Below, in pieces: positions 33,697 through 56,894 of a stretch of 64,000 nt of DNA. The stretch is from Candidatus Latescibacterota bacterium (GTDB taxonomy: Bacteria; Latescibacterota; UBA2968; GCA-2709665), in the NCBI GenBank assembly GCA_965116875.1, contig OZ220733.1, positions 4,320,001 through 4,384,000 on the forward strand, read 5' to 3'. Each line of letters opens with the position of its first letter. The first letter of the stretch is position 1. The notes under the pieces are model-generated. The model was not told the origin of the DNA. It searched no databases and saw nothing but the letters and a program-made list of their open reading frames with translations. A program made the translations under genes and the position numbers.

Positions 33697-33760
33697 TCAC
33701 GATAATATCACGATTTAAGGACGCAATAGTCACTATAAAAACACTTTAACGTGGTATATT
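33697..33760 (+). promoter_or_regulatory. Phased-box promoter 1 (five 11-bp units plus extended -10)
   Basis: TCACGATAATA/TCACGATTTAA/GGACGCAATAG/TCACTATAAAA/ACACTTTAACG then TGGTATATT. Confidence 0.7.
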
Positions 33761-33826
33761 ATCATGATATTTATATATTATCTGTCGCTCATAGCAACCG
33801 TAGGCCAACTCAAGGGGAGGGATGTC

Positions 33827-36800
33827 GTGTATATTCACTATCGCAGGCGATTCAAGGCGTGTGTTGCTGCCTGGAGGCGGTTGTGCGGCGTCGCGTACCG
33901 CGGTGTCGTGCGGACCGGCGGCTGGATGGCGGTCCCTGCAATCTGTTTGTTTCTGGTAACGACGATCTACGCGCAGACCGGCAACGGTCCGACGAACCTG
34001 AACGTGTCGCTGGTCGGACAGGACGTGGTGGAACTGACGTGGGACCCGCCGGCGGTGGATGGGGCGAGTGTGAACCATTACGACATCAGATACGAGGAAC
34101 AGACCGGAGCATTGCAGGGATGGGAGAACGGCACGATCGGCGCGCTGGGAAGTGCGACGAGCACGCAGTTGTTGTTGAGAAACCGCACGCAGGCGAGGTA
34201 TTACACGTATCGAATGTTTGCCGTACGCAACGGCGTGGAAAGCGAGTGGTCGAACAGCGTAACGTATGATGCGGACACGGACGCGGTGGTGGCGCTGCCG
34301 GCGGCGCCTGGCGGGCTTACGGCCAGTCCGCGAGACGGCGCGATCGGTTTGTCCTGGGACGACCCTGCCGACGCCACGATCGTCAACTATCAGTTGCGCT
34401 ACGCTCCCGGCGGCATGACCTCCCCACCGAACTGGACGGGCGTTGTATGGAGCGATATTGCCGGCAGTGACGCCGGCACGACCGATCACGACGTCACGGA
34501 CCTGATCGCCGGCACCGAGTATACGTTCGAGATGCGGGCCAGAAACGCGGCCGGCGTGGGTGACTCGAGCGTGGTAACGGCCACGCCCGGCCTGCCGTCT
34601 CCGCCCGTCAATCTGTCGTCGACTCCCGGCGACGGATCGGTGCGGTTGACGTGGGACGATCCGGGCGACGTCAGGATCACGGGATACCAGCGTCATGTAC
34701 AGCACTGCCACGGTCCTGGAACAGGACTGGACGGACATCACGCCTAGCGATCGATACACGGCGGAACACGAGGTGACGGGCCTGACGAACTGGACTGAGT
34801 ATACGTTCAAGGTGCGCGCGTTGAACGCGGCGGGCCCCGGGGCGCCGGCCGGCGTAATCAGCAGGCCCGGGGGCCCGCGGGCGCCCGAGGGTCTGTCCGC
34901 ATCCGCGGGCGACGGGGCGGTGACGCTGTCATGGGACGATCCGACCGATGCCGCGATCACCAAGTACCGGATCCGGTACGCGGAGACGAACGCGTCGCTG
35001 CCGGCGTGGAGCGACATATCGGGCAGCGGCGCAAGCACCACGACCCACGACGTGATGGACCTGACCAACGATACGGAATACACCTTCGAATTGCGAGCGC
35101 AGGCGACGGACACACCCGGCGACTCGTCGGTCGTGACGGGGACGCCGCGGTCGTGTCCGGCGATTATTGTGACCGGAATCGGCCCTGCGACCGTGACGGT
35201 GAACCAGGCCGTCACGCTCGCGGCGCAGGCCAGAGGGGGATGCGGGAGGATCGAATTCACGAAGAAGAGCGGCCCGACGTGGATCACCGTCCACGCCAAC
35301 GGGAACATCCGTGGCACGGCGCCATCCACGCCCGGCTCGCATCCTGTCACCCTGACGGCGGCGGACGGCGAAGGGAACAGCACGGACAAGACGTTCACGA
35401 TTACCGTCCGGTGCAGCAGGGTCAGAATCACAGACATCCCCGACCTGACGGTGTCAGCGGCCGCCGCCTTTTTGCACACCACGTCCGTGGGCGGGGGCTG
35501 CGGGTCGCGAACGTCGTCGACCGAGGACGCGCCGGAGTGGGTTGAGGATAGAATCGAAAACAACGGAGACCTGACCATCCACGGCACCGCGCCATCGTCG
35601 CCCGGCACGCAGGGCGTGACGGTGCGGGTGCACGACGCCTTCGGCAACGGCCACGGCGACTTTTTCAGGATCACGGTTGTGTGTCCAGACGTCGAACTCG
35701 AGGACATCCCCGGCATGACGGTGACGGTGGGCGATTCCATCTCGATTGCGGCGAGCGCGCAAGGAGGATGTGGGGCGCTTAGCTATTCGATGTCCGGCGC
35801 GCCATCGGGGGTATCCATTGATCCGTCAACCGGGGAAATCAGAGGCGTCGTTGGCGGCCCTGCCGGCGAAAACAGCGTAAGGGTGACGGCGAGCGACAAC
35901 CACGCGAATTCCGATGATGTTAATTTCATCGTCACCGTTTGCGGGAAGGTCGTCATCTCACCTATATCTAATTTGACGGTCACGAAGGGCGATACAGTCG
36001 ATATTAGACCGAGTACGACTGGTGGATGCGGGAATATTACATACACGTTGACAGGCACTCTTCCTGAAGGTGTAAAATTCAACGACGGCACGGGTGTCAT
36101 CTACGGTCCAGCCAACGAGACAGGAACATTCCCCTTGACGTTGACGGCGACCGCGACGAACGACAGTGGTAATTTCGACACGGTGCAATTCGTGATCGAC
36201 GTGATCGATCCCTGTGAGCCAATCACGATCGCCGGACTGAGCAACGTGATGATTGCGGTGGGTGATTCGATTGAGGGGATCACGGCGACCGCGTCCGGCG
36301 GAAAGGCGCCGTATGAGTACAGATATGCGATCGAGAGCGGCCCCGACTGGGTAACGATCGGCGAGGTAAGCGGGTGTGTCCGAGGGACGGCCCCATTCAG
36401 TGCGGTTGGCGACAACGATGTGACTGTAAAGGTGAGCGAAGGGGACTGCCCTGAAGGCCAGGGCTCATTCCGTGTTACGGTGAAATGCCCGCAGCTTGCA
36501 GTAACGTATGGCAATCTGACGGTGGCGGTGGGCGCGTCACCCGAGCGACCCTCGAATACGCCGACGGTGAACGGGGGATGCCCGCCGATTACATTCGCAA
36601 TGCACGGGACGTGGCCGTCGTGGGTAACCCTGAACGAAGGCAACGGGAGCATTGGCGGCACGGCGCCAGCGTCCGATGCCGGGAAGAGCTTCGCGTTGAC
36701 GGTGCGGGCAACGGACAATAAGGGCAATTCCGTCGATGCGACGTTTACACTCACCGTTCCCTGCCTTCCGCTGTCACTCGCGTTCATCTCCGACGTGGTG

Positions 36801-37517
36801 GCACAGCAGGGTGTGGCCATAAGCGCGATACAGGCCAGGGGCACCGGCGGTTGTGCGCCCCTCGAGTACGGGCTTACGGCGAACCCTTCATCGGGGTCAG
36901 GCCTCTCCATTGGCACGTCCAGTGGACTTATCACCGCAACGCCGACGGCAGTGGACACGTACGCAGTCGACGTGACGGTAACCGACTCCCTCAACACGTC
37001 TAAGTCGAGGTCGTTCGAAATGCGTGTGGCGCCGGCGCTGACGTTGGACGTCGTGGATCTGTGGGAGGCCGTGGACGCGCCGATTCTGAGTGTATACGTC
37101 AGCGCCTCCGGCGGGCAGCCGCCCTACCGTTATTCGCTGTCCGGCGGTCCCGCGGGGCTTTCCCTGAACGCGACGACGGGTGAGTTCACCGGCACGGTAA
37201 CGCAGACGGGCACGTGGAACGGGACCGTCAGGGTGACCGATGCGGACAATCGCAGCAAGTCGGAGGGCATCACGATCACGATATATCTGCCCGGGGACTT
37301 CAATCGCGATGGAAAGCGTGACGCGGCCGATGCGGCGTTATTCAACCAGAAACTGGGTCTGCGGTCGACGGATGCGGAATATGACCGGATGTATGACCTG
37401 AACGGTGACGGGATCATCAACTGGGCGGACTACGTGATCCTGTCGGGGTACATCGAGGACGACGCGTCGTCCGGGAGCGGAAGCGGGGATACATCGGGTA
37501 GCGGTGAGGGCGGGTGA
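33827..37517 (+). pseudogene. Secreted FN3-repeat / putative-Ig (He_PIG-like) / dockerin-like protein split by a +1 frameshift at about 34690
   Basis: ORFs 33827-34747 and 34695-37517 join within an FN3 repeat (GGA TAC CAG [C] GTC ATG TAC AGC = GYQ-VMYS). Signal peptide, four FN3 repeats, Ig repeats, C-terminal GDFNRDG...DLNGDGIINWADY. Could be an assembly error. Confidence 0.8.
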
Positions 37518-37551
37518 TCCCTTCGCGCATCGCGAGCAAGCGCGTGTGAGG

Positions 37552-37576
37552 GTGGGGCGCACATTCCTGTCTGCCC
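37552..37576 (+). repeat. REP-like palindrome, second type
   Basis: GTGGGGCGCACATTCCTGTCTGCCC; related copy GTGGGGCGGACATTCATGTCTGCCC at 42183-42207. Confidence 0.65.
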
Positions 37577-37647
37577 ACGTGTGCAGTCTTGTCAAACTGA
37601 CTTCGCCATAGAGCAGTCGAAGCATCTCTCATGGAGGCGATATCTTT

Positions 37648-40600
37648 GTGAAGAGAAGGGTTGTTTATCGTTTGTCACTTTGGCTGCCGCTGTCGGCGTG
37701 TCTCCTGCCAGCGCCGTTCCTACCCACGGTCGTACGCGCAGCGCAGGCGCCTGCGGACAGCGTGGCGTTCTGCCGCGTAGTGGGCCACGAACACTGGCCG
37801 CGCGGTTACGTCGAGGCTGCGGACAAGGTTGCATCGTCGCAGCTGAACGCGGGCGAGCCGCGGACGGTGCGGATGATCTACTTTCTGCCGAACGACCGCC
37901 CGTACCGACAGTCGGTGGTGGATACGATGAGGGCGAGGATGGTGCGTATGCAGGCGTTCTTCGGAGAGCAGATGGAAGCCCACGGATATGGATATATGAC
38001 GTTTCGATATGAAGCGGACGCTGCCGGGGAACCCGTGGTGCATCGCCTGAATGGGGAGCACGACGACGCCCGATATATCGAGGAGACGAGTGGCTCAGTG
38101 CAGCAGGAGTTTTTCAGGGCGTACGAACGTGACCACCGCGTCTACTTCATCGTCATCGACAACAGCACGGATCTTATCCACCTGGCGCATGGTTTGGACG
38201 TACTTGGCGTTGCATCCGCAACCAGGAACCGAGGTCGTGCGATGGTCCCCGGGCGTTACACTTTCGATACGGCGGCACATGAACTCGGGCATGCCTTCGG
38301 GATGCTGTGGCACGATTTCCGGGACAGCGCCTATATCATGTCAGGTAGTCCCTTCAGGCACAGGCTGTCGGCGTGCTCGGCGGGGTATCTGTCGGTGTCG
38401 CCGTACTTCAACCCTGAGGTAGCTATTGAGACCGATTATACCTCTGCGCCGACCGTTGAATACGTCGGGTCCAACCCCTGGTATGGTGAGGGTACCAGGC
38501 GTTTCACACTGCCGTTGCGCGTGACGGATGCGGACGGTGTTCACCAGGTGTTCCTTACCGTCGGCAGTCCGGAAGTTCGCCTGCTGACAGCGGAGCTGAA
38601 GGCGTGCCGGTTGATGTCCGGCGAGACGGATGCGGTCGTGGCGTTCGAGTATGACGGTGTGATCCCGTCGGTGCGCCGTTCGAGCTTTTCGTATCCCACG
38701 ACACACCAGTTTCAGGCGCAGGTGTTCGATAAGGCGGCGCATTTTGGCAGTGACAATTTCGCCATCGCGCGGGCGTCGCCGCATCACGTGGCCACGTTAG
38801 CGACGGAGGGGGGGCTCTGGATTTCCTCTGTGGCGTTCTCGCCCGGCGGCGGCATGTTGGCGGCCGCGTGGGTTGGCGATAACGTCTCATCGGCTGACGT
38901 GAACACAGTGAGACTGTGGGACGTGGCAACGCGCGAAGTGGTCGCCTCGCTTGGCGGATACAGGCCGGTCGTGGAGTCGGTGGCGTTCTCTCCCGACGGT
39001 GCGATATTGGCGGCCGGGTTGAGCTCCGGCACGCTGGGGGTATGGGACGTGTCAATGCGCGAAGAGGTCGCCGTGCTGGAGGGTCACAAGGGGATGGCGT
39101 GGTCCGTGGCGTTTTCACCCGGCGGTCGCCTGCTGGCGTCGGGGTCGTGGGATGCGACGGTGAAGGTGTGGGACTCGTCGTCGTGGGAGGAGGTCGCCGC
39201 GCTGGAAGGGCATACGGATATCGTCAGTTCCGTGGCGTTTTCTCCCGACGGGCGCCTGCTGGCGTCGAGCTCTCGGGACCGCACGGTCAGATTGTGGGAC
39301 ACGTCGTCGTGGCAGGAGGCCGCCAGGCTGGCGGGGCATACGGATTTCATCTGGTCGATCGCGTTCTCTCCGGACGGCCGGCTGCTGGCGTCGGGGTCGC
39401 GCGACGGGACGGTGAAGCTGTGGGACGTGGGGTCCCGAGCGGAAACCGCAACGCTGGTAGCGCCCCTGCGGCTTGTCACGTCGCTCGCGTTTTCCCCCGA
39501 CGGCAGCACGCTGGCCGCTGTATCGCAATACGGGCTGGTCGACCTGTGGGACGTATTCAGCCGCGAGATCGTGGAGCAGTACGCGCATCCCGGCGGGGTC
39601 TATTCGCTGGCGTACGCTCCCGACGGTCGCATCCTGGCCGCCGCCGTTTCGCGGGGCCGGGTGGAGCTGTGGGACACCTCGCAATGGATGGCCCCGCGTC
39701 CTGTCGGCGTGACGGCGATATCGGGCGTTGGGCAGCGCGGCGCGCCGGGGTCCGTGCTGCCGCGGCCCTTTGTGGTGGAGGTGCGCGACCAGTATGACGA
39801 GCCGCTTGCGGGGGTTTCCGTGACGTTCACGGTGACGGAGGGCGGCGGCAGGGTGGGGGCCCGGTTCGGCAGTATGCGGGCAAGGACCGACAGCGCGGGC
39901 CGGGCGGAGGCGTTGCTGACGCTGGGCCCGGCGTCAGGACGTCACGCGGTGGACGTGTCCGTCGGCGGGCGGGTGTTCACGACGGTGGAGGCGCGCGGCG
40001 TGGGCGCGTGGGTGGATGCCGAGGAAGGTGACGTGTCGCTATGGCATCTGCCGCGAGGCGCCCTGGCGCGCCTGGGCAAGGGTGGCGTCGGCAGCGGCGC
40101 GCACGCCCTGGCCCTGTCTGCCGACGGGGGGTATCTGGTGGTGGGCACGGGCGTGGGCGCGTGGGTGTATGACGCGCGCGGGGGCGGTTACGTGACGCTT
40201 TGTCGTTCCGGCGGCGGCGCGCGTGAAAGCGTCGGATCGGTGTCGATCTCGCCGGACGGGTCGACGGTGGCGACGGGTCACGAGGGCGAACTGAAGCTGT
40301 GGGATCTTGCCACGGGGGCGCGGAAGGGCTATCTGTACCGGCCCGGCGAGCCCCTGTACTACCCTGTCGGGGTGTTTTCGCCCGACGGCGAGGTGCTGGC
40401 ATCGGGACAGAACGACGGTTCGGTGCTGTTGTGGGACGTGGCTTCCGGGCAGGTTGCCGCACGACTGGACGGGCACGGGCGCGGCGTGCGTTCTCTGGCG
40501 TTCACGCCCGACGCCCGTGTGTTGGCCACGGCGTCGGCGGACAGCACGGTGCGGTTGTGGGACGTGGTCTCGCGCGAAGCGCTGGGGGTGTTGCGGGGCC

Positions 40601-42021
40601 ACGGCGGCGGCGTGAAATCGGTGTCTTTCTCACCCGACGGTCAACTGCTGGCGTCGGGATCGGCTGACGGCGCGGTGCTCTTGTGGGACGTGGCGTCGCG
40701 CGAGGAGGTGGCGGGGTTGCGCGGCGTCGCGGGCGCGGTCAACGCGGTGTCGTTTGCCTCCGGCGGCGGTAGGCTGGCCGCGGCGCTGAACGACGGTACG
40801 GTCAGGGTATGGGACGTCGCATCGTGGGACGAGGCGGCGGTGCTGGAGGGCGGCGGGGGGCGGATCGGTTCGGTGGCGTACTCGCGCGACGGCGCCGTCA
40901 TGGCCTACGGCGCCGTTGACGGGGCCGTTGTGGTGCATGACGAGGCGACGGGGCGCACGCGCAGGCTGCAGGGGTTTGCCGGTAACGACGCGATGGCGGT
41001 CTCTCCGGGAGGAACGGTGGTGGCGTCGGGGTCCTGGCAGGGCCGGGTCGTGCTGTGGGACGCGGCGTCGCGGTCGGCGCTGGCGGCGCTTTTGGCACAC
41101 GACGGTCACATCACCGCATTGTCGTTCTCTCCCGGCGGGCGCATGCTGGCCTCGGCAGGGGCCGACGCAACGGTCAGACTGTGGGACGCGGGCACCGGCG
41201 AGGCGATCGCCACGCTGCCGGGGCATGCGTCCGGCGCCGCGCTGTCTTTTTCCGAAGACGGCAGCAGGCTGGCCTCGGGCGGAGCCCGGGACGGCGTGGT
41301 GCGGGTGTCGGACGTCGCAAAGCGGAAGGTGATCGCAACCGTGGAAGCAGGAGACGGCTTCACCACCCTGGCGCTGTCTCCCGGCGGGACGCTGCTGGCG
41401 ACGGGGACGAGTGCCGGCGCGGTGACGGTGTGGGACGTGGATCCGGGGCGCAACGTCGCGACGCTGGAAGGGCGCGAACGCGTGGTGACGCTGGCGTTCT
41501 CGCCGGACGGCGGCGCGCTATCTTCCGTGACGGACGCGGGGACCGTGACGGTGTGGGACGTGGAGACCCGGCAGGCGCGGGCAGTGACGCATACGTCGCC
41601 CCGGGTGGTCCGCGCGGCGGCGCTCTCACCCGGCGGGGAGGTGCTGGCGATCGCGTCCGGTTGGGGACGGATCACGTTGTGGGACGCCGCAACGGGGCGG
41701 CAGGCGGCCGTCCTTTCAGGACAAAGCGGCGGTGTCGACCACCTGGCGTTCTCCCATAGCGGGAGGACGCTGGCGTCGGGCGCGCGCGACGGCGCCATAC
41801 TGGTCTGGGATATGTCCGCGTACGTCACGCCGCGATACCGCAGCGCGGACTTCGACGGCGACGGGCAGGTGGACTTCAGCGACTTCGTCGTGTTCGCGGG
41901 AAAGTTCGGGACAAGCCGCGGCGATTCGGGCTATGACGCGCGCTTCGACCTGGACTGGAACGGCGCCATCGGCTTTTCCGACTTCCTCATCTTCGCCGGC
42001 GCCTTCGGGCAGACCGCGTGA
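37648..42021 (+). CDS. Secreted protein: zinc-peptidase-like domain, multiple WD40 propellers, Ig-like domain and dockerin/EF-hand-like C-terminus
   Basis: Signal peptide; AHELGHAFGMLWH with downstream YIMS; many GH....S.AFSPDG..LASGS.D.TV.LWD repeats; C-terminal ADFDGDGQVDFSDF...DLDWNGAIGFSDF. Confidence 0.9.
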   Translation: MKRRVVYRLSLWLPLSACLLPAPFLPTVVRAAQAPADSVAFCRVVGHEHWPRGYVEAADKVASSQLNAGEPRTVRMIYFLPNDRPYRQSVVDTMRARMVRMQAFFGEQMEAHGYGYMTFRYEADAAGEPVVHRLNGEHDDARYIEETSGSVQQEFFRAYERDHRVYFIVIDNSTDLIHLAHGLDVLGVASATRNRGRAMVPGRYTFDTAAHELGHAFGMLWHDFRDSAYIMSGSPFRHRLSACSAGYLSVSPYFNPEVAIETDYTSAPTVEYVGSNPWYGEGTRRFTLPLRVTDADGVHQVFLTVGSPEVRLLTAELKACRLMSGETDAVVAFEYDGVIPSVRRSSFSYPTTHQFQAQVFDKAAHFGSDNFAIARASPHHVATLATEGGLWISSVAFSPGGGMLAAAWVGDNVSSADVNTVRLWDVATREVVASLGGYRPVVESVAFSPDGAILAAGLSSGTLGVWDVSMREEVAVLEGHKGMAWSVAFSPGGRLLASGSWDATVKVWDSSSWEEVAALEGHTDIVSSVAFSPDGRLLASSSRDRTVRLWDTSSWQEAARLAGHTDFIWSIAFSPDGRLLASGSRDGTVKLWDVGSRAETATLVAPLRLVTSLAFSPDGSTLAAVSQYGLVDLWDVFSREIVEQYAHPGGVYSLAYAPDGRILAAAVSRGRVELWDTSQWMAPRPVGVTAISGVGQRGAPGSVLPRPFVVEVRDQYDEPLAGVSVTFTVTEGGGRVGARFGSMRARTDSAGRAEALLTLGPASGRHAVDVSVGGRVFTTVEARGVGAWVDAEEGDVSLWHLPRGALARLGKGGVGSGAHALALSADGGYLVVGTGVGAWVYDARGGGYVTLCRSGGGARESVGSVSISPDGSTVATGHEGELKLWDLATGARKGYLYRPGEPLYYPVGVFSPDGEVLASGQNDGSVLLWDVASGQVAARLDGHGRGVRSLAFTPDARVLATASADSTVRLWDVVSREALGVLRGHGGGVKSVSFSPDGQLLASGSADGAVLLWDVASREEVAGLRGVAGAVNAVSFASGGGRLAAALNDGTVRVWDVASWDEAAVLEGGGGRIGSVAYSRDGAVMAYGAVDGAVVVHDEATGRTRRLQGFAGNDAMAVSPGGTVVASGSWQGRVVLWDAASRSALAALLAHDGHITALSFSPGGRMLASAGADATVRLWDAGTGEAIATLPGHASGAALSFSEDGSRLASGGARDGVVRVSDVAKRKVIATVEAGDGFTTLALSPGGTLLATGTSAGAVTVWDVDPGRNVATLEGRERVVTLAFSPDGGALSSVTDAGTVTVWDVETRQARAVTHTSPRVVRAAALSPGGEVLAIASGWGRITLWDAATGRQAAVLSGQSGGVDHLAFSHSGRTLASGARDGAILVWDMSAYVTPRYRSADFDGDGQVDFSDFVVFAGKFGTSRGDSGYDARFDLDWNGAIGFSDFLIFAGAFGQTA

Positions 42022-42065
42022 TATGGCCCTCCCACTGTCGCAAAACGCTACAGTCGCGACGCATT
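42022..42065 (+). repeat. 44-bp element directly after the stop codon of WD40 gene 1
   Basis: 38/44 identical to 44834-44877 after WD40 gene 2. Confidence 0.85.
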
Positions 42066-42133
42066 ATGCGACACACCTGCCATTCCGGAAACTGCCAATT
42101 GGCTCTACCGCTTCACCCGGCCCCGTTCCCGAT

Positions 42134-42207
42134 GCAGGGGCGTCCCTTGTGGGCGCCCGCACCTCGACGGACCGGTCTGAAGGTGGGGCGGACATTCATG
42201 TCTGCCC
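42134..42207 (+). repeat. Pair of REP-like palindromes
   Basis: Copies of the motifs at 31588 and 37552. Confidence 0.7.
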
Positions 42208-42289
42208 GCGTCGCATCGTCCCACCCTCCCCGCGTCCGGGAGGGTGGGGGAGGGATCTCGTACCGACGAAGCTTTTTTACAGAGGTGGT

Positions 42290-47332: not shown

Positions 47333-47496
47333 CACCTTCTGATCGATGATTTCATGTTGCGCTGTGGAATGTTTCGTTGGCGACAGTCGATATATCTGAT
47401 TGTTCACAATATAGGTAAGGACGTCTCGTGAATCCAGCGCATTTTCCCGGCGGCGCGTCGGTTCACCGGAAGTCACGATTGGAAGGCCCGGTCCGG

Positions 47497-48708
47497 TCAG
47501 TCACCCAATCGATACCCTTCCCCCGGCTGATTGAAGACGTAAGTGGGATTGTCTACGTCGTCTCCCAGCTTGCGGCGGATTTTCTTTACCGTTGTTCGCA
47601 AACGTCGCGTATCACCGGCGTCCAGCGTGTCCCAGACCCGCCTCAGCAGGTCTTCATTGGTCACCAACCGCCCCGCGTTCGCAGACAACTCCCGCATCAG
47701 ACGGTACTCGAGCCTGGTCAGATGTACCGGCCTGCCTGCGAGTGTCACTTCTCGCCTGTCGTAGTCAATCCTCAAGTCTCCCAGCACGAACGGCTCTTCC
47801 GAATGGGCTTGTACCCGCGCCTCACGGCGGCGCAGCGCTGCCCTGATCCTGGCCGACAGTTCGACGGGCGCAAAGGGTTTGACCACGTAGTCGGCTGCCC
47901 CGGCATCGAGTGCGCGGGCAATGGCTTCCTCGTGCGCGTACGCTGAGAGAAAGATGACCGGAAGGTCCGGATCTGCGATGACGTCGGTCATCACCTCAAC
48001 CCCGTCTGTTCCCGGCAGGACCAGGTCCAGCAGTACGAGCGCCGGACGGTGTTTCACCAGCAGTTCGGGTATGTCGTGCGGATTGGCGGTCCCGCAGGGT
48101 CGATATCCTTCGTCGGCCAGGACGTCCAGAACGTTTCGCAGCGTTTGAAGATCGTCGTCAACCGCCAGGATGCATGTCGACTCCCGTCCCGTCGCCCGCT
48201 TGTCCGCGTCGTCCGCCCGTCCGCCGCGCATCCGCATCCGTTCTTCTACGGGCGTCAGATCCTGCAGTGTCACCACAAGCGACTCGACCGCGCCGTCGTC
48301 CGAAAGAACCGGTCTGGCGTTCATCAGTGCGCTTACCCGTCGGTCGTCGGGGGCCGGGAACTCGACTTCCACTGCCCGAATCGTCTCGCCCGCGCTCACC
48401 GCCCGGGCAACGGGATGCTCCTCGAGCGAGAGCGTTCGCCCGTCTTCTCGTCGAACCGAGATCGCCTTCAGGAAATGATTCATCGACTGCCCTGCCGTCA
48501 ACAGGTCGCCGGCGAGCCTGCTTGCCTCGCGGTTGATGGATGCCAGTGTTCCCGCGATGGCATCGATGACGACGATGCCGATGGGCATCGTGTCCGTCAA
48601 CGTATGCATGTCGAGGCGCCCACTGATCCGTACGCTCGCTTCACCCGTGATGGAAGGCCTCGCCGCCACCGTTTTGTCTTCGCCTCCGGCCCGTTGCCCG
48701 GACTCCAT
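47497..48708 (-). CDS. PAS-REC-wHTH response regulator lacking the kinase core
   Basis: PAS domain homologous to that of the hybrid kinases, joined directly to REC (LLDLVLPGTDG, DYVVKPF) and wHTH; RBS GGGAGAGG. Confidence 0.88.
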   Translation of the reverse strand: MESGQRAGGEDKTVAARPSITGEASVRISGRLDMHTLTDTMPIGIVVIDAIAGTLASINREASRLAGDLLTAGQSMNHFLKAISVRREDGRTLSLEEHPVARAVSAGETIRAVEVEFPAPDDRRVSALMNARPVLSDDGAVESLVVTLQDLTPVEERMRMRGGRADDADKRATGRESTCILAVDDDLQTLRNVLDVLADEGYRPCGTANPHDIPELLVKHRPALVLLDLVLPGTDGVEVMTDVIADPDLPVIFLSAYAHEEAIARALDAGAADYVVKPFAPVELSARIRAALRRREARVQAHSEEPFVLGDLRIDYDRREVTLAGRPVHLTRLEYRLMRELSANAGRLVTNEDLLRRVWDTLDAGDTRRLRTTVKKIRRKLGDDVDNPTYVFNQPGEGYRLGD

Positions 48709-48818
48709 GACCTCTCCCTGATTGGCTGATTGAACTCCCTGGCATCGATCGACGGAAACCTCCCGCCCCAACGTTACGGAATGGTGGTGCGGTAGTTTTT
48801 TATTGGACGCTCAAAAAA

Positions 48819-48882
48819 TCACTAAAAAATCACGTAAAATAAACCCAATAGACACAAATAAGTCACGATTATTTGGTATATT
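48819..48882 (+). promoter_or_regulatory. Phased-box promoter 2
   Basis: TCACTAAAAAA/TCACGTAAAAT/AAACCCAATAG/ACACAAATAAG/TCACGATTATT then TGGTATATT. Confidence 0.7.
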
Positions 48883-49176
48883 TACATCAAAGTACGCCTC
48901 TGTACGGGGTCCGTCAAGGCAAATTGTGGCCAAAATCCGCTGAAATGTCATATTGGCGACCGCCCCCGGCTGGGGAGGGCTGCACGTCTGGAGGCACAGG
49001 GCACACGACAGACCCGGGGAGGGGACGCCGCGATCTACAGCATCAGGATTTCTGGTCGCATCAACCGGTAGCGACTTTTAAGTCGATGGAAGCGTGATCG
49101 AGTTGCAGAACAACCGGTATTCCGATCAGAACGTCCCCCGGAGTGGATACAGCCGTTATCAGGAAGGGAGAGACAT

Positions 49177-51984
49177 ATGCACAAAAGATGCCTCCGACTC
49201 GCCGTACGAATCGCATCGATCTCCATCATTGTCGGACTGAACGTCCTTCAGGGTCCGTCCGAGGTTTTCGCCGACCACGAGATTGCCACCTTGCGAGAGA
49301 TGAACGTGATCTCCGTACCTCCGGATTCCGCGTTCTACAGCGTCTTTTCTTCATATGGCCCCAATGGAAACACCTACGGGCTGGGAGAGATCATCGAAAT
49401 CGAGGCCACCTTCAACAGGGGCATGCTGGTCACAGGGAGCGGCGAGGTCTTGATGGACCTCACCGTCGGCGACTCGACGCGGACCGCCAGGTACCATCGC
49501 GGATCCGGCACGAGAAAGCTGGTCTTCCGTTACAAAGTGATCGCCACGGACACGGATACCGACGGGATCAGCGCACCCGCGACCGCCTGGAGCGGCAGCG
49601 GCACGGTGAAGACTTCCGTCTCCAACTTTGCGGCGGTCTTCACGCCCATAGGGCTCGACACCCAGTCGGGTCACAGGGTGAACGGCAGCCTGGGCCCCTG
49701 GGTCACCCAGGTGGAAATCGCCTCCACGCCTGCCTCCGGCACCACCTACCGGCATGGAGAAGAGGTCGAGATCGACGTGACGTACACCGCTCCCGTGCGG
49801 GTCGACAGCGTCGACCGACCCTGGCTGGCCTATTTCTGGGACCGGGCGTCGGATGGCACGGAACAGCAGAATTTCGCCTCGTACCGGAGCGGGACCGGTA
49901 CCAACACGCTGCGTCTCTCCTTTACGGTGAGATCCGAATTCAAGGACACCGACGGGGTGCGGATCGGGAGTGCTTTCCCTGATCAGCCGGGCGAGAGAAG
50001 GGAAAGAATCGTCTGGGCGTTGAATCACGACGGCGTGAGGGCGCCCTGGAAGATGTCGGGGCTCGACGCGGATCCCGACCACCAGATGAACGGGGAGCCT
50101 TACGTCAAGGGGGTTGCCGTCACCTCGAGTCCGGCCTACGGCGCCACCTACCGGCGCACGGAGGCGATCCGGATCACGGTCACCTTCGACCAGAACGTCC
50201 AGGTAGAGGGTACCGTGACCAAGGGCTTGAAGTTCACCTATGGCGACGGCGAATTCACCAGCCCATTTGCCGGACACGCCGGCGGCAACCGCACCCGGGC
50301 CCTGGTCTTCAAACACACGGTCGTGGAAGGGGATGAAGACACGGACGGTCTCACCGTCCTGGCCGGCGATGACGGTGGGTGGGGGGGGAGCGGAAAGATC
50401 TGGTCGTCGCGCCCCGCGGGCTCCCTGGAGACTCTGGCGCAAGCCGATCTGAGCCACAGCGAAATCGCGAACGCCGACAGCCACAAGGTGAACGGAGCGC
50501 TGACCCTGCCCGTTCCCGGCATCTCGTCGGTCGAGTTGGTAACGGATCCGGGGGACGACTCCACATATGTCGCCGGCGACTGGATTGGCGCAAAGGTGAC
50601 CTTCGACGAAAGCGTGTCCGTCACGGGAACTCCGCAGCTCGGGATGGGAATCGGGACAACGGAGAAGATCGCCCGGTTCGGGCAGGGCTCGTTCGAGGGA
50701 AGTGTCAGCCCCGGCGACAGGACCGCCGGCCCCGAGGTGGTCTTCGGCTACCAGGTGCAGGAAGGCGACGTCGACAGCGACGGCATCGCCATCGGGGAGG
50801 ACAAGCTCACCCTCAACGGCGGCGCCATCAAGCAGGCCGTGACGGACGTGGCCGCGGACCTTAGCCACGATCCCGTGACCTCCGATGCCGGCCACAAGGT
50901 GGATGCCGTGGCTCCTGTCGTGTCATCCATCGCCATCAGCTCCCGTGCGGGCGGCGATTCCCTCTACGCCATCGGCGACAGCATCGAGGTGACGATGACC
51001 TTCAGCGAGGAGGTGACTGTCTCCGGCGCCCCGCAACTGGAGCTGGACCTCGGCGGAGAGGCGAAAACGGCCGCCTACGATTCCCCCGGTGATTCAACAG
51101 CGGTCTTTGCCTACGTCGTTCAGGAGGGGGACGCCGACACGGACGGCATCGCCATCGACGCCGACACCCTCGGTCTCGAGGACGACAGCGCCATCACGGA
51201 CCGCGTCGGCAATCCGGCGGAGCTGGCCTACGGGGCCGTCGCCGCCGACCGCGCCCACAGGGTCGACGGGGTGCCCCCGACTCGCAGCTCCGCGGAAGTC
51301 CTCCACACCGGCCGCCAGGTCAACCTGTTTTTCAGCGAGCAGGTCACCATTCCCCGGATTCTTCGCACGATCAGTGGCATCGTCAACGTAAATCTCGGTC
51401 AGTTCTACATAGCCGTCCTGACCCTTGAGGTGGACGGCGATCAGGTGAGGCCCAGTTCCGCCTCTCTTCACGGTCTCACGTTGCAGCTGGGCCTCAACGC
51501 CTCGAATCGGGTGACCGAGAACCAAAGGGTCAAAATATCCTACGACAACATCTTCGCCCGCGATGCAGTGGGGCTCTTCATCGACAGGGTCGGCAACCCG
51601 ATGGCCAACTTCGGCGCCGCCACTGCACAGAACCTTTCCAACCAGGCGGACGCGGAGGAACCGGACGTCGGGCAACTGGTATTGAGCCGGAACGAATTGA
51701 GGATCAACGAAGGGGAAACCAGAGGGTATACGGTGGCCCTGGAGTCCCAGCCTTCCGACAGCGTGACCGTCGCCGTCAGCAGCTCCTCGAGCAAGCTGTC
51801 CGCCAATCGTGACAGCCTCACCTTCACCACGGACAACTGGCATGTGGCGCAGCGGGTGAGGCTCACCGCCAGCCAGGACGACGACGACCTGAACTATTGG
51901 GTGGCTGTGACCAACAGGGGCAGCGGGGGAGGGTACGACGACACAAGGAAGTGGGTGCTTGTCGTCATCGACGACGACGACTGA
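49177..51984 (+). CDS. Large secreted or surface protein with five Ig-like repeats plus SwmB-like and Calx-beta-like C-terminal domains
   Basis: Signal peptide; repeats of TY..G..I.V.VTF...V.V.G.P.L...F.Y.V..GD.D.DG...H.V.G; C-terminal EGETRGYTVAL.SQP...LTFT..NW...Q.V...DDD. Confidence 0.8.
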   Translation: MHKRCLRLAVRIASISIIVGLNVLQGPSEVFADHEIATLREMNVISVPPDSAFYSVFSSYGPNGNTYGLGEIIEIEATFNRGMLVTGSGEVLMDLTVGDSTRTARYHRGSGTRKLVFRYKVIATDTDTDGISAPATAWSGSGTVKTSVSNFAAVFTPIGLDTQSGHRVNGSLGPWVTQVEIASTPASGTTYRHGEEVEIDVTYTAPVRVDSVDRPWLAYFWDRASDGTEQQNFASYRSGTGTNTLRLSFTVRSEFKDTDGVRIGSAFPDQPGERRERIVWALNHDGVRAPWKMSGLDADPDHQMNGEPYVKGVAVTSSPAYGATYRRTEAIRITVTFDQNVQVEGTVTKGLKFTYGDGEFTSPFAGHAGGNRTRALVFKHTVVEGDEDTDGLTVLAGDDGGWGGSGKIWSSRPAGSLETLAQADLSHSEIANADSHKVNGALTLPVPGISSVELVTDPGDDSTYVAGDWIGAKVTFDESVSVTGTPQLGMGIGTTEKIARFGQGSFEGSVSPGDRTAGPEVVFGYQVQEGDVDSDGIAIGEDKLTLNGGAIKQAVTDVAADLSHDPVTSDAGHKVDAVAPVVSSIAISSRAGGDSLYAIGDSIEVTMTFSEEVTVSGAPQLELDLGGEAKTAAYDSPGDSTAVFAYVVQEGDADTDGIAIDADTLGLEDDSAITDRVGNPAELAYGAVAADRAHRVDGVPPTRSSAEVLHTGRQVNLFFSEQVTIPRILRTISGIVNVNLGQFYIAVLTLEVDGDQVRPSSASLHGLTLQLGLNASNRVTENQRVKISYDNIFARDAVGLFIDRVGNPMANFGAATAQNLSNQADAEEPDVGQLVLSRNELRINEGETRGYTVALESQPSDSVTVAVSSSSSKLSANRDSLTFTTDNWHVAQRVRLTASQDDDDLNYWVAVTNRGSGGGYDDTRKWVLVVIDDDD

Positions 51985-52051
51985 AAGGTACTACCCGCCG
52001 ACGCGCCTGCCGGCGTCACACAGAGACTTCAAACCGGATCGAGGCAGCAAA

Positions 52052-53299
52052 ATGAAGGCATTGTTGTTGTTCGTTATCGTGATCTTTCCGGTCTCTTCAT
52101 GGGCAGACGCGCCTTCTCCGCCGGATACGTGGAACCTGGTTCCGAACAGTCTTGATTTCAATATTCGGACCATTGTCTATCCTCCGGACGAAGAGGTCGA
52201 TCCCATTCCCGTGACGCCCTATCTCACCCTTGAATTGTACCGGTGCAATTCCTACAGGCTGACCGTTGGGGTCCGGGCGGCAGCGGGGTACAGGTTTCCC
52301 CATTTCCTGCCAGGCCGGCAGGCTCACGAACCGGTTCCTGAATCGAGAGCCGTCGTCGCGTTCGGCTACTATACACTGCAATCCGATATCCTGCGTTTCA
52401 ACGCTCATTATTTGAGCCTGTTCGAAGACGGCGAAGATCTGGAAAACGTCGTAAAGCTGTCCGATAGCGAGATGGCACTGGAGGAATACAGGCTCGTTAT
52501 CACCTTCGTAAACACGATTTTCCTTGAGTTCTTTAACGACCTCTACGCGCACCTGACCCGCGACCGGCTGGTCTTCATGCTGCCCGGCGACAGCGATTTT
52601 GCCGACCCTTTCGCGGATTCTGGCGAGGAAATCGTCTGGGAACTGGCGCGGCCGGGAGGTCCCTCGTCGATTTCCCGGTCGGCGGTACAGGCCACCGTAA
52701 CGGGAAAGGCGACGGAGGCTCTGACGGTGGAATTCGCCCGTTCGGTATCGGGGCGGCCCCCGCAATTCGCCTGGTGTGCGGTCACCGACGGCGCAGGCCG
52801 CGTGGAGCTGGACGTCGTCACGCTGCACGGTTCGGGAGTCACCGGCTACTACAGCGCTCGCGCCCGCAATGAAGCCGGCGAGATCGTGGGCCGATGGCGC
52901 AGCATTCCTCTCAACGAGGACCACCGCCAGATCCTGGAATTGACACTGGGGGGCGGCGTGCGGGTGCTTGCCAGCCACGCGCTCTATTCAGGCAAAGTCG
53001 CGCCGCCCGGGAACGCACAACCTGAAGCCGGGTTGGCGCCCAATTTTCCCAATCCGTTCAACAGCAGCACGCTGATCGTGTACCGTCTGGCGGACGCGGG
53101 TCCCGTGCGTCTGGAGGTCTTCAATTCCCTGGGCCAGCATCTGAACACGCTGGTGGATGATCATCAGGCCGCGGGCAGGTACGTGGTCCGGTGGCACGCG
53201 CGCGACCGGCGCGGGAATGAAGTGGCCGCAGGTGTTTACGTCATGCGCCTGTTCCATCCGGGTGGCATGGACGCCCGGCGCATGTTGTACCTCAAGTAA
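52052..53299 (+). CDS. Secreted protein with C-terminal FlgD-Ig / T9SS-CTD-like domain
   Basis: Signal peptide MKALLLFV...WA; C-terminal NFPNPFNSST.I.Y.L.....V.LEVFN.LGQ...L......G.Y...W...D..G..VAAGVY...MLYLK. Confidence 0.8.
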   Translation: MKALLLFVIVIFPVSSWADAPSPPDTWNLVPNSLDFNIRTIVYPPDEEVDPIPVTPYLTLELYRCNSYRLTVGVRAAAGYRFPHFLPGRQAHEPVPESRAVVAFGYYTLQSDILRFNAHYLSLFEDGEDLENVVKLSDSEMALEEYRLVITFVNTIFLEFFNDLYAHLTRDRLVFMLPGDSDFADPFADSGEEIVWELARPGGPSSISRSAVQATVTGKATEALTVEFARSVSGRPPQFAWCAVTDGAGRVELDVVTLHGSGVTGYYSARARNEAGEIVGRWRSIPLNEDHRQILELTLGGGVRVLASHALYSGKVAPPGNAQPEAGLAPNFPNPFNSSTLIVYRLADAGPVRLEVFNSLGQHLNTLVDDHQAAGRYVVRWHARDRRGNEVAAGVYVMRLFHPGGMDARRMLYLK

Positions 53300-53375
53300 C
53301 GAGACTGAACAAGCTTTCAGGACAGGATTGAAACACGCCGCTGGATAAACAGAATCGGGGATAGGAGGAAATGCA

Positions 53376-54134
53376 ATGAAATACGCACTGGCTCATTCGA
53401 TCGTCGCGATGGCCGTTCTGGCAACCGCCGTTGCGGCGGAAGAGCCTCGTTTTGAGGGACAGGTGGTCAATCCGAAGTCCCAACCGGTCAAAAGGGTGGA
53501 GGTAGTGGTTTTCAGGCTCGATGATCCGCGTCAGAGGCTGACCGCGCTAACGGATGAAAGCGGGGGTTTCTCGCTGCCGCTGCGAGACCTTGTTCCGCCG
53601 AGACCGAATGCGCTGCTGCAGAATCATCCGAATCCATTCAATCCTTCCACCCTGATACCCTTTGAGATCGAGAAGCGCGGGCACGTGCGTCTGGACGTTT
53701 ATAACATTCTGGGACAGCGCGTGATCACGCTGGTCGACGAAGAACGCCCGGCCGGATTCCACAGGGTGCAGTGGGACGGCGCCGACAGACGTGGCAGGGG
53801 CGTGAGCGCGGGGGTCTACATCTACCGGCTCAGCACGGGAAACTGGCACGATGCGCGGAAACTGATGCTGCTGGACGGCGCGTCTGGGCGTGTTGGCGGT
53901 AACGCGGCGGGATTCTCGGAAGAAGCAGGGGCTCACACGCTGGGTGTGAAGATTACGGGCGAGGAGATCCTGCCATCGACCTTTACCTGGAGCCGGGACT
54001 CCGGGCCCCTGGTGGCGGAAGTGAAAGGAATAGAAGACCTCCTTCCGCCTGAGGTCGTGGACTCCAGGACCGGAGCCAATCCCTTCTCCGGTACCAGCCT
54101 CGCGTCCATCATCCAGATCGTTTCAGCGCGCTGA
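53376..54134 (+). CDS. Secreted protein: carboxypeptidase-regulatory-like domain with an internal FlgD-Ig-like domain
   Basis: RBS AGGAGG; signal peptide; G.V......V..VEV...TDESG.F; QNHPNPFNPST...SAGVYIYRL. Confidence 0.78.
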   Translation: MKYALAHSIVAMAVLATAVAAEEPRFEGQVVNPKSQPVKRVEVVVFRLDDPRQRLTALTDESGGFSLPLRDLVPPRPNALLQNHPNPFNPSTLIPFEIEKRGHVRLDVYNILGQRVITLVDEERPAGFHRVQWDGADRRGRGVSAGVYIYRLSTGNWHDARKLMLLDGASGRVGGNAAGFSEEAGAHTLGVKITGEEILPSTFTWSRDSGPLVAEVKGIEDLLPPEVVDSRTGANPFSGTSLASIIQIVSAR

Positions 54135-54169
54135 AACTAGATCCGTCGGCGACGTCAGCCCATACGGGC

Positions 54170-54205
54170 GGCCCTGTCTCGCATTGACGCCGGCAGGGCC
54201 TTTTT
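54170..54205 (+). terminator. Probable intrinsic terminator ending the 49177-54134 unit
   Basis: GGCCCTGTC...GGCAGGGCC followed by TTTTTG. Confidence 0.6.
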
Positions 54206-54320
54206 GTGTCGGGTGAATTCGTTGCTTCACAAACCCACGTGTGATTCTACCGCAACCGCGCCTGCGCTTTCATGATGAGGAAGCCTTCCGGCTGACGATA
54301 CGCCGCCGGCGCTTCTCTGC

Positions 54321-56732
54321 CTACGCGCTCTTCGACGCTGTTTCCCGACCCTTCGGCTTTCCGATGCGGTAGCCGACTCCGTGTTCCGTGAAAATGTACT
54401 TCGGGTCGGCGGCGTTGTCCCCCAACTTTCCACGCAGTCTCCTGACCAGGGAACGGACGTGTCGCAAATCGCGCCCGCCGCGCCCGCCCCAGATTCGGCG
54501 CAACAGGGCCTCATGCGTCACCACCCGACTGGGGTTGGTGGTGAGTTCATGCAACATCCGATACTCGTTCCTGGTCAGTTGCACGTCCAGCCCGCCTAAC
54601 GTCACGAGCCGTTCCCTGTAGTCCAGCGTCAGTTCCAGATACACGAAGGGAGCGTCGGGCGCCGCCTGGACCGGACCGGCCTCCTTTTTCAGTGCGGCGT
54701 TGATTCTTGCAACGAGTTCCGTCGGTGAAAAGGGCTTTACGATATAGTCGGACGCGCCCGATTCGAATGCCCGTGCGATGTTGTCTTCCCGGCCGTATCC
54801 GGACAGGACGATCACGGGCACCTTGTCGACCTTGACGACCTCCCCCAACAGTTCAAATCCGTCGGTACCCGGCAGGATCAGGTCGAGCAGCACCAGGCAG
54901 GGTTCGTGCAACTCGATGAGATCCGCGACCTCTCCCGGGTCGGCGGTCACAATGGGCGTGAAGCCCGCATTCTTAAGGATCTCACGAACGGATTTGAGCG
55001 TCTGCGGGTCGTCGTCCACCGCCAGAATTCTTCCTCCCCCTTCTTCGATATCGGGCGAATGCTCGGTGCTGGTCCCGGCCGTACGGGCCGGCGATGCCGG
55101 TACCTCCTCGGCCACCGGTACGGTGAACGAGACCTTCGTGCCCTCGCCCGATCCTTCGCTCTCGGCCCATATCCGCCCGCCGTGGGCCTCTACGATGCCT
55201 TTGCAGATCGCCAGGCCCAGGCCGGTTTCGTGATTTCTGCGTTCGTCGTCGTTCCGTGAGAACTTCCTGAACAGGTGCGGCAGGAGATCCGCGGTGACTC
55301 CCGAGCCTTCATCCGTAACGGAAACCTCCACGTGGAAGTCACCAGGAACCGCGGTGAGGCGGATGGCGGATGACGCGTCGGAGTATCGTGCCGCGTTCGT
55401 AAGGAGATTGTTCAATACCTGCACGACCCGGCGCCGGTCGGCCATGACCCGTGGCAGGTCCGGCGGAAGGTCGAACTCGATGTTATTGCTGCCCCCGCCA
55501 CTCAGAAACGTGCTTCTGGCCTGTTCGACGATGGCGGTAAGGTCGGTCGGGTCAGGAACGACCGAGAGCGAGCCGGTCTCGATCTGCGCCACGTCGAGCA
55601 GGTCGCTGATCATATCCCGCATGCGGTCCGCCTGGTGGTCGATGATCCGGTGGAACTGCCGCATTTCGGCGGGGTCGAGGATCGACGAATCGTCCAGCAG
55701 GGTCGTGGTAGAGCCCTTTATGGACGACAGCGGGATCCGGAGTTCATGGCTGACCATGGCCAGGAACTCGGCACGAAGGCGCTCCAGGTCCTCCAGGGGG
55801 GCCATGTCCTGCATCGTCGCAACAACGGACTCGATATTGCCATCCCTGGAACGGATGGGCGTGGCATTGACCAGCGTCGTCACGGACCGGCCGTCGGGCA
55901 CAGCGAGGACGATCTCCTCCGCACGGACGGTCTCGCCTGCGCGCAACAGCTGCACCAGGGGTAACTCTTTAAGGGAGACCTCCCGACCGTCGGCGCGCCG
56001 AAAGGTCAGCACCTCCAGAATCTGCTCCTCCGGATAGCCCGGTGTTCGTAGGTCTCCCACGATCCTTCTGGCCTCGCGGTTGAACGTCAGTGGCGATCCG
56101 GACCCGGCGTCCAGGACCGCGACCCCGATCGGTGAAGTGTCGATCAGGGTCTCCAGGTCCAGCCTTGCCTTCTGTTCGTCCCGGTGCCGGCGTGCGTTGG
56201 CGATGACCAGCGCCGCCTGCGAGGCAAACATCACCAGGGTCTCTTCGTCTTCGGCCGTGAACGCTTCTCCACCTTCCTTTTCGCACAGATAGAACGTTCC
56301 CACGCTCTCACCGCGGTAGCGGATCGGCGCTGCCAACAGCGCGGGGGACGGACTCAAAGGTAACTGGGGGCGGAACTCAGGCAGGCCCTCGGATCTGAGG
56401 TGGCTTTGTACGTCCCGCAGCCGAAGCGGCTCCGTAATCGCGGAGAAGTGTTCAAAGAGCCTGTCCCTTCCCGGGTGAAACCACAAACGCCTGGACTGAT
56501 AGGGCGTAAACCCTGAGGTAATGCAGTCCTGCGCCTGTCCTGCATCGTCCAGCAGCGCCATCATGCCGTACCTGGCATTGGTCAGCGATCTCGCGCTGTC
56601 CACGGCTTCCTTCAGTACAGCATCGAATTCGAGACTTTCGTTGATGCGAAGGCTGGCCTCGCTCAGCTTTGTGAGGCGGTCCCGCAGGGCAGCCGCTTCC
56701 GGATTGCGCTCGTCCGATTTCGTCACGCTCAA
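54321..56732 (-). CDS. Second soluble hybrid regulator GAF-PAS-HisKA-HATPase-REC-wHTH (paralog of 44891-47332)
   Basis: Same motifs (VSHELRIPLSSIKG, NLLTNA, GLGL, LLDLILPG, YIFTEHGVGY); start is TTG 56732 or GTG 56726. Confidence 0.93.
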   Translation of the reverse strand: MSVTKSDERNPEAAALRDRLTKLSEASLRINESLEFDAVLKEAVDSARSLTNARYGMMALLDDAGQAQDCITSGFTPYQSRRLWFHPGRDRLFEHFSAITEPLRLRDVQSHLRSEGLPEFRPQLPLSPSPALLAAPIRYRGESVGTFYLCEKEGGEAFTAEDEETLVMFASQAALVIANARRHRDEQKARLDLETLIDTSPIGVAVLDAGSGSPLTFNREARRIVGDLRTPGYPEEQILEVLTFRRADGREVSLKELPLVQLLRAGETVRAEEIVLAVPDGRSVTTLVNATPIRSRDGNIESVVATMQDMAPLEDLERLRAEFLAMVSHELRIPLSSIKGSTTTLLDDSSILDPAEMRQFHRIIDHQADRMRDMISDLLDVAQIETGSLSVVPDPTDLTAIVEQARSTFLSGGGSNNIEFDLPPDLPRVMADRRRVVQVLNNLLTNAARYSDASSAIRLTAVPGDFHVEVSVTDEGSGVTADLLPHLFRKFSRNDDERRNHETGLGLAICKGIVEAHGGRIWAESEGSGEGTKVSFTVPVAEEVPASPARTAGTSTEHSPDIEEGGGRILAVDDDPQTLKSVREILKNAGFTPIVTADPGEVADLIELHEPCLVLLDLILPGTDGFELLGEVVKVDKVPVIVLSGYGREDNIARAFESGASDYIVKPFSPTELVARINAALKKEAGPVQAAPDAPFVYLELTLDYRERLVTLGGLDVQLTRNEYRMLHELTTNPSRVVTHEALLRRIWGGRGGRDLRHVRSLVRRLRGKLGDNAADPKYIFTEHGVGYRIGKPKGRETASKSA

Positions 56733-56830
56733 ACCTCACTGATTTCGCGCTCCGTCTCCGGCCGGGGATGGTCCAGCCCAAGCCGGTGACGCGTACACGG
56801 CTCAATCAAATCTGTCGAATTGTCAAAATA

Positions 56831-56894
56831 TCACGATAATAGCACGAAAAAATGACCCGTTCTCACAGATTTGTTATAACTATTTCTTTATATT
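56831..56894 (+). promoter_or_regulatory. Phased-box promoter 3
   Basis: TCACGATAATA/GCACGAAAAAA/TGACCC.../TCACAG...; TATATT at 56889, 58 bp after the first box as in promoters 1 and 2. Confidence 0.6.

Follow-up and report, generated by a model that had tools for sequence, protein, structure and literature searches.

The locus and its arrays

We analysed a window of 64,000 nucleotides (positions 4320001-4384000) on OZ220733.1, the single contig (5.45 Mb, 59.6% G+C) of assembly GCA_965116875.1 from Candidatus Latescibacterota bacterium. Three AT-rich intergenic segments of this window carry the same array, a run of short box-like units phased at 11 bp and followed by the -10-like hexamer TATATT, and each array points into plus-strand genes. 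The window also contains, on the minus strand, the genes of three regulators with an OmpR-type winged helix-turn-helix (wHTH) domain. In two of these, a sensor, a histidine kinase, a receiver (REC) and the wHTH domain are joined in a single chain. The coordinates of these features, counted from the first letter of the window, are given in Table 1.

Table 1. Arrays, regulator genes and array-facing genes of the window (aa, amino acids)
Feature	Coordinates	Strand	Description
Array copy 1	33697..33760	+	Boxes at 33697, 33708, 33719 (weak), 33730 and 33741; -10 TATATT at 33755-33760
Array copy 2	48819..48882	+	Boxes at 48819, 48830, 48841 (weak), 48852 and 48863; -10 TATATT at 48877-48882
Array copy 3	56831..56894	+	Boxes at 56831, 56842, 56853 (weak) and 56863; unit 5 degenerate; -10 TATATT at 56889-56894
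HK803	54321..56732	-	Single-chain GAF-PAS-HisKA-HATPase-REC-wHTH protein, 803 aa (Pfam, motifs)
RR424	47497..48771	-	PAS-REC-wHTH response regulator, 424 aa (Pfam); heads an operon with HK861
HK861	44891..47476	-	Single-chain GAF-PAS-HisKA-HATPase-REC-wHTH protein, listed open reading frame of 861 aa (Pfam)
Decayed wHTH coding remnant	33426..33533	-	76% identical at the DNA level to 45124-45233 (110 nt) within the HK861 gene
Target cluster 1	33827..44833	+	fn3 protein, He_PIG/fn3/Dockerin_1 protein, two WD40 proteins (Pfam)
Target cluster 2	49177..54134	+	935-aa protein without Pfam match, then two FlgD_ig proteins (Pfam)
First gene after copy 3	57169..58080	+	303 aa, no Pfam match; paralogues at 61879 and 62925

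The three arrays share one register, with units at index 0, 11, 22, 33 and 44. These units read TCACG / TCACG / GGACG / TCACT / ACACT in copy 1, TCACT / TCACG / AAACC / ACACA / TCACG in copy 2 and TCACG / GCACG / TGACC / TCACA (at index 32) / TTATA in copy 3. Unit 3 ends in CAATAG in copies 1 and 2, and TATATT occupies index 58-63 in all three arrays, preceded by TGG in copies 1 and 2. No sigma-70 -35/-10 pair was found on the plus strand of any of the three array regions. Copies 2 and 3 are divergent from wHTH genes, whose minus-strand starts lie 47 and 98 bp away, respectively, and no intact regulator gene adjoins copy 1. The original prediction, made from the letters of the window, had described such a common layout with TATATT at +58, no recognisable -35 and two segments divergent from OmpR-type wHTH genes, and the present analysis agrees with it on each of these points.

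The regulators

The Trans_reg_C domain (PF00486) was found in the three window regulators with 73.4, 63.9 and 70.3 bits (cut-off 26.2), and the Response_reg domain (PF00072) with 83.3, 76.6 and 81.6 bits (cut-off 30.2). HisKA and HATPase_c of the hybrids also exceed the Pfam cut-offs, as do Trans_reg_C and Response_reg in two other paralogues of the genome. Over its whole length, the REC-wHTH part can be aligned with the closest solved proteins, MtrA (2gwr, E=1.5e-35), KdpE, BaeR, RpaA and RegX3; the Pfam domains and these full-length alignments thus confirm that the wHTH is of the OmpR type, as first proposed. By motif matching only, the receiver motifs VDDD, LVLLDL (containing the acceptor Asp) and KPF are present in all three proteins. 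An H-box (SHELR), an N-box and a G1 motif were found in HK861 and HK803, and the strict G2 pattern only in HK861. RR424 has no kinase motifs and hence is not a kinase. No membrane-like segment was detected in the regulators, in which hydropathy reaches at most 1.5-1.8 over 19 residues, in charged REC/PAS stretches.

HK861 and HK803 are 71% identical from HK861 residue 48 onward, and homology places the true start of HK861 probably near 47335. The REC-wHTH part of RR424 is 50% identical to that of the hybrids. Searching the genome by tblastn with the three regulators returned exactly two further full-length paralogues, which are 53-54% identical; other REC-wHTH proteins are also encoded, e.g., near 2496147, 2138202 and 4225482. 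In the protein database, at least 8000 candidates were scored; the 120 best clusters, with identities of 57% or more, all have the full architecture, and their names are no more than generic (e.g., 'response regulator', 'ATP-binding protein').

The 160-nt spacer between RR424 and HK861 (47336-47496) resembles the leader of copy 3 (56895-56945), with which it shares AATCCAGCG and its flanks, and in three relatives this spacer holds a GC-richer, degenerate run of boxes. Both features suggest that the RR424 gene was inserted between the HK861 gene and its old array.

Rarity of the array in the genome

In the window, two boxes combined with TATATT at +58 gave 3 matches against 0.00 expected, and none of 100 shuffles contained any. 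This pattern was defined after the fact; its independent validation lies in the scans of the genome and of the relatives. The two-box pattern alone occurs at chance level (3 matches against 2.77 expected, with 3 reached in 53 of 100 shuffles) and was therefore rejected as a signal.

Across the whole 5.45-Mb genome, a strict regular expression matched five times, at the three window copies, at a fourth copy (3172089) and at one GC-rich site. With a position weight matrix built from the four copies, the next-ranked sites among ~10.9 million positions were 2586163 and 2565415. These two sites face the only two other full-length paralogues, the starts of which are divergent from them at ~110 bp. 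Thus, all four regulator operons of the genome (4/4) have a divergent upstream array. The genome holds six arrays in all (2565415, 2586163, 3172089, 4353697, 4368819 and 4376831), and it should be noted that they all lie on the plus strand of the contig.

A generic four-box score of at least 12 was reached at 12 of the 126,988 AT-rich positions of the genome, and seven of these 12 are inside the six arrays. For other generic matches at this score (e.g., 1644828, 1123633, 2968435, 2417278 and 4582380), tblastn revealed no adjoining regulator. No site scoring at least 13 was tied to another regulator type in the genome scan, and no pst or pho gene with boxes appeared in that scan, which was the full extent of the examination of such genes.

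Conservation in relatives

The whole-genome scan for arrays covered this genome, and in relatives the upstream regions of the regulators were searched. Full-length relatives of HK803 were found in 17 of 41 related genomes, with 14/14 in the genus and 0/19 in the sister family. Over the phylum, the regulator is present in 37 of 168 genomes and is confined to two families (16/21 and 20/76). We examined 52 regulator-type open reading frames with upstream DNA, of which 41 are operon heads, eight follow a PAS-REC-wHTH gene within an operon and the other three are fragments. The array score has a maximum of 14, and a score of at least 12 was taken as an array. On this basis, an array lies upstream of 26 of the 41 operon heads of the same family (30/41 at a score of at least 11) and upstream of 15 of 20 regulators in the second family (18/20 at a score of at least 11). 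Across many genomes, the array is strictly associated with this regulator family.

The array of copy 2 recurs upstream of six orthologous PAS-REC-wHTH genes, each scoring 14/14, and that of copy 3 is almost identical upstream of HK803 orthologues. Regulators that are only 50-55% identical keep the array geometry with unalignable spacers, the units in relatives being placed at 0, 11, (22), 32/33 and 43/44, as in this genome. Moreover, a 52%-identical regulator in a metagenome-assembled genome (MAG) titled Candidatus Versatilivorator (Acidobacteriota) has the same layout with TATAGT at +57. Orthologues and paralogues in two families of the phylum, and a regulator in one Acidobacteriota-labelled MAG, are thus preceded by this geometry. 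Upstream of a 55%-identical regulator in a MAG titled SAR202, no clear array was seen. The patchy distribution in the phylum, together with the SAR202- and Acidobacteriota-labelled MAGs, could be explained by horizontal spread or by binning errors.

Position of the -10 and direction of the probable promoter

A TAnnnT skeleton, which played no part in the selection of arrays, lies 14-16 bp 3' of unit 5 in 32 of 37 non-redundant arrays, with at most four arrays at any other offset. The distance from box 1 to the first in-frame start codon of the regulator ranges from -37 to 372 bp among arrays scoring at least 12. Since the -10 keeps its place with respect to unit 5 and the regulator start does not, we read the array as organised around a promoter directed away from the regulator gene. 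Activation would fit this arrangement, given that boxes stand in the place of the missing -35.

Arrays without an intact regulator

Copies 1 and 4 (3172089) are the arrays without an intact regulator, and ~470 bp is common to both, with ~80% identity over the 470 bp and >90% over ~230 bp. Upstream of copy 4 lies the same wHTH remnant as upstream of copy 1 (Table 1), with frames broken by stop codons. Orthologues of copy 1 occur in 5 of 14 other genomes of the genus; in these, boxes 1, 2 and 4 are retained together with the -10, whereas the flanks drift. Because the four TCACG-type arrays resemble each other, a paralogue could plausibly control the two orphan arrays.

Two further candidates were considered in the DNA common to both copies. 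A shared open reading frame upstream was rejected, because its stops differ between the two copies. A ~130-bp stretch that is near-identical in these two copies shows far less conservation in other species; it was rejected as a conserved element and read as a recent duplication.

A terminator-like hairpin with a T run (33659-33671) lies 26 bp 5' of box 1 of copy 1. It could insulate the copy 1 promoter from read-through, and its stem is weakly conserved in other species. Directly 3' of the -10, a palindrome around ATTATCA-TGATAAT is present in copies 1 (33758-33775) and 4. In other species it reads as an extra TCACGATAAT box at index 65-66, with a second TATATT near index 77, and it could be an operator or a second promoter.

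The leaders 3' of arrays 2, 3, 5 and 6 have no second copy in the genome by BLAST, and since each is unique there, their membership in a detectable multi-copy family was ruled out. The leader of copy 4 carries a short, hairpin-like dispersed repeat of ~30-40 nt with ~90 BLAST matches in the genome on both strands, two copies of which lie inside the window (37544-37583 and 42133-42211). No Rfam family was found at gathering score anywhere in the window.

Genes downstream of the arrays

In each of the three clusters, the first gene encodes a protein whose N-terminus resembles a signal peptide, as judged by eye only. The original prediction had named the products of the three clusters as FN3/WD40-dockerin, Ig/FlgD and TPR-MORN proteins, respectively. 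The first description is borne out by Pfam matches to fn3, He_PIG, Dockerin_1 and WD40. The second holds for the two FlgD_ig proteins but not for the 935-aa protein that precedes them, which matches no Pfam family. The third finds no confirmation: no Pfam family matches the first gene after copy 3, and the further genes gave only TPR_16 (E=0.039 and 0.14) and MORN (E=0.54). This gene and its two paralogues (57169, 61879 and 62925) encode secreted-looking proteins of ~300 aa that have a common N-terminal motif and belong to no Pfam family. Between 57000 and 60000, the G+C content drops to 40-50%, compared with ~62% around it.

The other three arrays of the genome precede a gene for a 1981-aa leucine-rich repeat (LRR)/fn3/cadherin protein, a gene for an M60-WD40 protein, and a gene for an LRR protein followed by one for an fn3/cadherin/M8 protein. 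Overall, proteins with fn3, WD40, LRR, cadherin, dockerin, M60 or M8 domains follow five of the six arrays. In relatives, we sampled 20 modules and tested two or three open reading frames in each; 11 modules encode proteins with M60, FlgD_ig, dockerin, Calx-beta, fn3, CARDB, LRR or cadherin domains.

In four of the 20 modules, the first gene encodes another response regulator, of the NtrC, LuxR or AraC type. Three of these four precede a giant repeat protein and are counted within the 11 modules above, and one belongs to the six modules in which only proteins of no family were found. Such first genes hint at possible regulatory cascades.

Discussion

The array described here constitutes a genuine cis-element that is conserved, has not been described before and goes with a family of soluble, single-chain two-component regulators that is itself uncharacterised. 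It is established that wHTH domains of the OmpR/PhoB type occupy direct repeats, spaced 10-11 bp apart, in a head-to-tail arrangement, and that at PhoB-type promoters a pair bound in this way replaces the -35. We consider it probable, at roughly 70%, that the arrays act as PhoB-like promoters which depend on activation and to which the single-chain regulators encoded next to them bind. That the regulators bind and activate there, and where transcription starts, is what we infer from the arrangement of the sequences.

In the proposed mechanism, the five units phased at 11 bp would form two pairs, a strong distal one at about -70/-59 and a proximal one at about -37/-26, with a weak unit between them. 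The proximal pair would stand in for the -35, with a sigma-70-type -10 at a fixed 14-16 bp beyond unit 5. Between the end of the proximal pair (index 33-48) and the -10 there are ~9 bp, and the distal pair lies 33 bp upstream of the proximal one. The boxes would be sites for the wHTH domains of the neighbouring soluble hybrids, to which one operon would add a kinase-less PAS-REC-wHTH partner. A cytoplasmic cue perceived at the GAF/PAS domains would lead to autophosphorylation and then to transfer of the phosphate to the protein's own receiver, and one box pair would then receive, head to tail, the two wHTH domains of a kinase dimer. Because the two pairs are 33 bp, i.e., three turns, apart, two dimers would come to lie on the same DNA face and the whole array would be filled. 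The proximal dimer would then recruit RNA polymerase to the -10, and the promoter would fire away from the regulator gene into the giant secreted repeat-protein genes.

Several observations weigh against this interpretation. Scores fall below 12 at 15 of the 41 operon heads and at 5 of the 20 regulators of the second family; several of these low scorers show variant boxes (ACAC, TTAC, TCAA) or one-base shifts, as seen by eye only. Array copy 5 has seven units and a -10-like TGGTATAC near +77 rather than at +58. Since the TCA positions were used to choose arrays, their information content is partly circular. Regulator and array are inherited together, and their association alone is no proof of binding. 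The four TCACG-type arrays are alike, so that more than one regulator is a candidate for serving the orphan copies. Finally, 9 of the 20 sampled modules have no repeat-protein gene among the tested open reading frames (six with no-family proteins only, three with other genes).

The arrays might be real and yet be read by another factor, such as a conventional OmpR-family regulator or a dedicated sigma factor, with the hybrids merely travelling alongside. The further REC-wHTH proteins encoded in the genome offer candidates for this role, the close similarity of the four TCACG-type arrays is what one global factor would need, and two arrays, if they work, do so with no intact regulator next to them. 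However, box cores vary by regulator clade (TCAC, TCA followed by a base other than C, CCAC, ACAC and TTAC), a diversity that a single global factor would not tolerate. An array is found at each of the four regulator operons of this genome and at most of the 61 operon heads elsewhere, and no array-like site scoring at least 13 goes with another type of regulator. We therefore regard control by another factor as unlikely.

The variation of the cores was also compared with the recognition helix of the regulators. When Arg occupies the fifth residue of the recognition-helix window, C is the fourth box base in 85 of 96 boxes, compared with 4 of 20 when the residue is His; Gln near the helix start goes with ACAC boxes in two of four lineages. 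Sign tests on the tree gave p≥0.5 and the His type forms a single clade, i.e., one evolutionary event, which also counts against the preferred interpretation. With too few independent events and no significance, covariation of helix and box on trees was rejected as proof; it is no more than suggestive, and the same pattern would result from co-inheritance.

Because the cores are clade-specific and each regulator operon has one array, insulated, local one-regulator modules look like the simpler and more likely arrangement than one co-ordinated regulon, although cross-talk among the four TCACG-type arrays is possible. The original prediction had tied the boxes to the hybrid kinase-wHTH proteins as a co-ordinately switched set. 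Its link between boxes and proteins is strongly supported by their co-occurrence (4/4 operons, two families), whereas the notion of a co-ordinate regulon is not, the box signatures being clade-specific.

It is also conceivable that the boxes are mainly operators through which the divergent regulator gene is autoregulated or repressed. The divergent layout would suit such a role, as would the closeness of the array to the regulator start in most arrays scoring at least 12 (within the range of -37 to 372 bp), and the extra box-like unit and palindrome after the -10 in copies 1, 4 and orthologues might serve as a repressing site. Nevertheless, what is held constant in 32 of the 37 arrays is the -10 relative to unit 5, on the target side, and not the distance to the regulator start; the orphan arrays keep their boxes and -10 despite a decayed regulator gene, and the missing -35 fits a need for activation. 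Autoregulation as the main function thus seems improbable to us, although it may coexist with the activation of targets. That the resemblance reflects nothing but shared descent or chance in AT-rich spacers is very improbable: copies 1 and 4 are recent duplicates and the two-box pattern alone is at chance frequency, but the geometry is kept where regulators are 50-55% identical and spacers unalignable, the AT-rich background is ~5 in 127,000 positions and the -10 offset is conserved.

If the arrays are activator-dependent promoters of the adjacent regulators, the observations can tentatively be joined in a broader picture, which we put forward as possible rather than probable. The soluble one-protein two-component system, the five-box promoter that lacks a -35 and the genes for giant eukaryote-like secreted proteins would form a self-contained cassette. 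This cassette would duplicate as a whole and re-tune box core and recognition helix together. It would sometimes lose its regulator, the promoter then coming under a paralogue, and it would have spread patchily in two Latescibacterota families and at least one Acidobacteriota-labelled genome. If real, such a cassette would respond to cytoplasmic GAF/PAS cues and would be the main level at which these uncultured bacteria control their host-interaction proteins.

Our literature searches found no paper on this regulator family, an absence that is not proof; nor did they find any on the promoters of eukaryote-like protein genes in Latescibacterota or on the regulation of giant LRR/WD40/FN3/cadherin genes in uncultured bacteria. 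The present finding supplies named candidate regulators, candidate binding sites at base resolution and a conserved promoter geometry, all three of which are open to experiment in vitro or in a heterologous host, with no need to culture the organism. Moreover, the paralogous pairs of regulator and site can be used to study how specificity diverges in the OmpR family.

Comparison with known systems

The closest parallel in promoter layout is offered by the pho-box promoters of E. coli (pstS, phoA), in which PhoB binds 11-bp direct repeats and the proximal pair takes the -35 position. Pho-box promoters and arrays have in common the OmpR/PhoB wHTH family, direct repeats of 11 bp, several tandem sites, the lack of a -35 hexamer and a proximal pair at the -35 position, at a fixed short distance from the -10. 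The arrays differ from the pho box in their TCAC core and in their five phased units with a weak middle one. Unlike PhoB, the regulators described here are fused to their own kinase and sensor, and their putative targets are secreted repeat proteins, not phosphate genes.

MtrA of actinobacteria, the best solved match to the REC-wHTH part, has a recognition motif quoted as GTCACAgcg in an excerpt of PMC2945938, and so shares the (G)TCAC core with the boxes. This agreement of cores points, though weakly, in the same direction. As a response regulator, MtrA is separate from its kinase, the membrane protein MtrB, and controls cell-cycle and envelope genes; the identity is only moderate, with no orthology implied.

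The hybrid two-component systems (HTCS) of Bacteroides control polysaccharide utilisation loci, as described in excerpts of PMC11253607 and PMC13292587. Like the hybrids, they unite kinase, receiver and DNA-binding domain in one chain and have many paralogues per genome, each encoded beside its presumed target locus, which specifies secreted or surface proteins. HTCS are, however, membrane proteins with a periplasmic sensor and an AraC-type HTH, whereas the hybrids have GAF/PAS domains, no membrane segment and an OmpR-type wHTH. Neither HTH_AraC nor HTH_18 was found by Pfam in the regulators, the output domain being Trans_reg_C. Membership of the hybrids in the Bacteroides HTCS was rejected, as the sensor and output domains are not homologous. 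The regulators thus add a soluble, wHTH-type counterpart to these membrane-bound, AraC-type systems.

The PmrA box of Legionella consists of direct repeats just upstream of the -10. PmrA and CpxR, which control type IV effectors, belong like the hybrids to the OmpR family, and they switch on host-interaction proteins, many of them with eukaryote-like domains, as stated in an excerpt of PMC3814349. The Legionella regulators belong to classical two-protein systems with one global regulon, whereas in the present genome there are several fused regulators, each with its local array.

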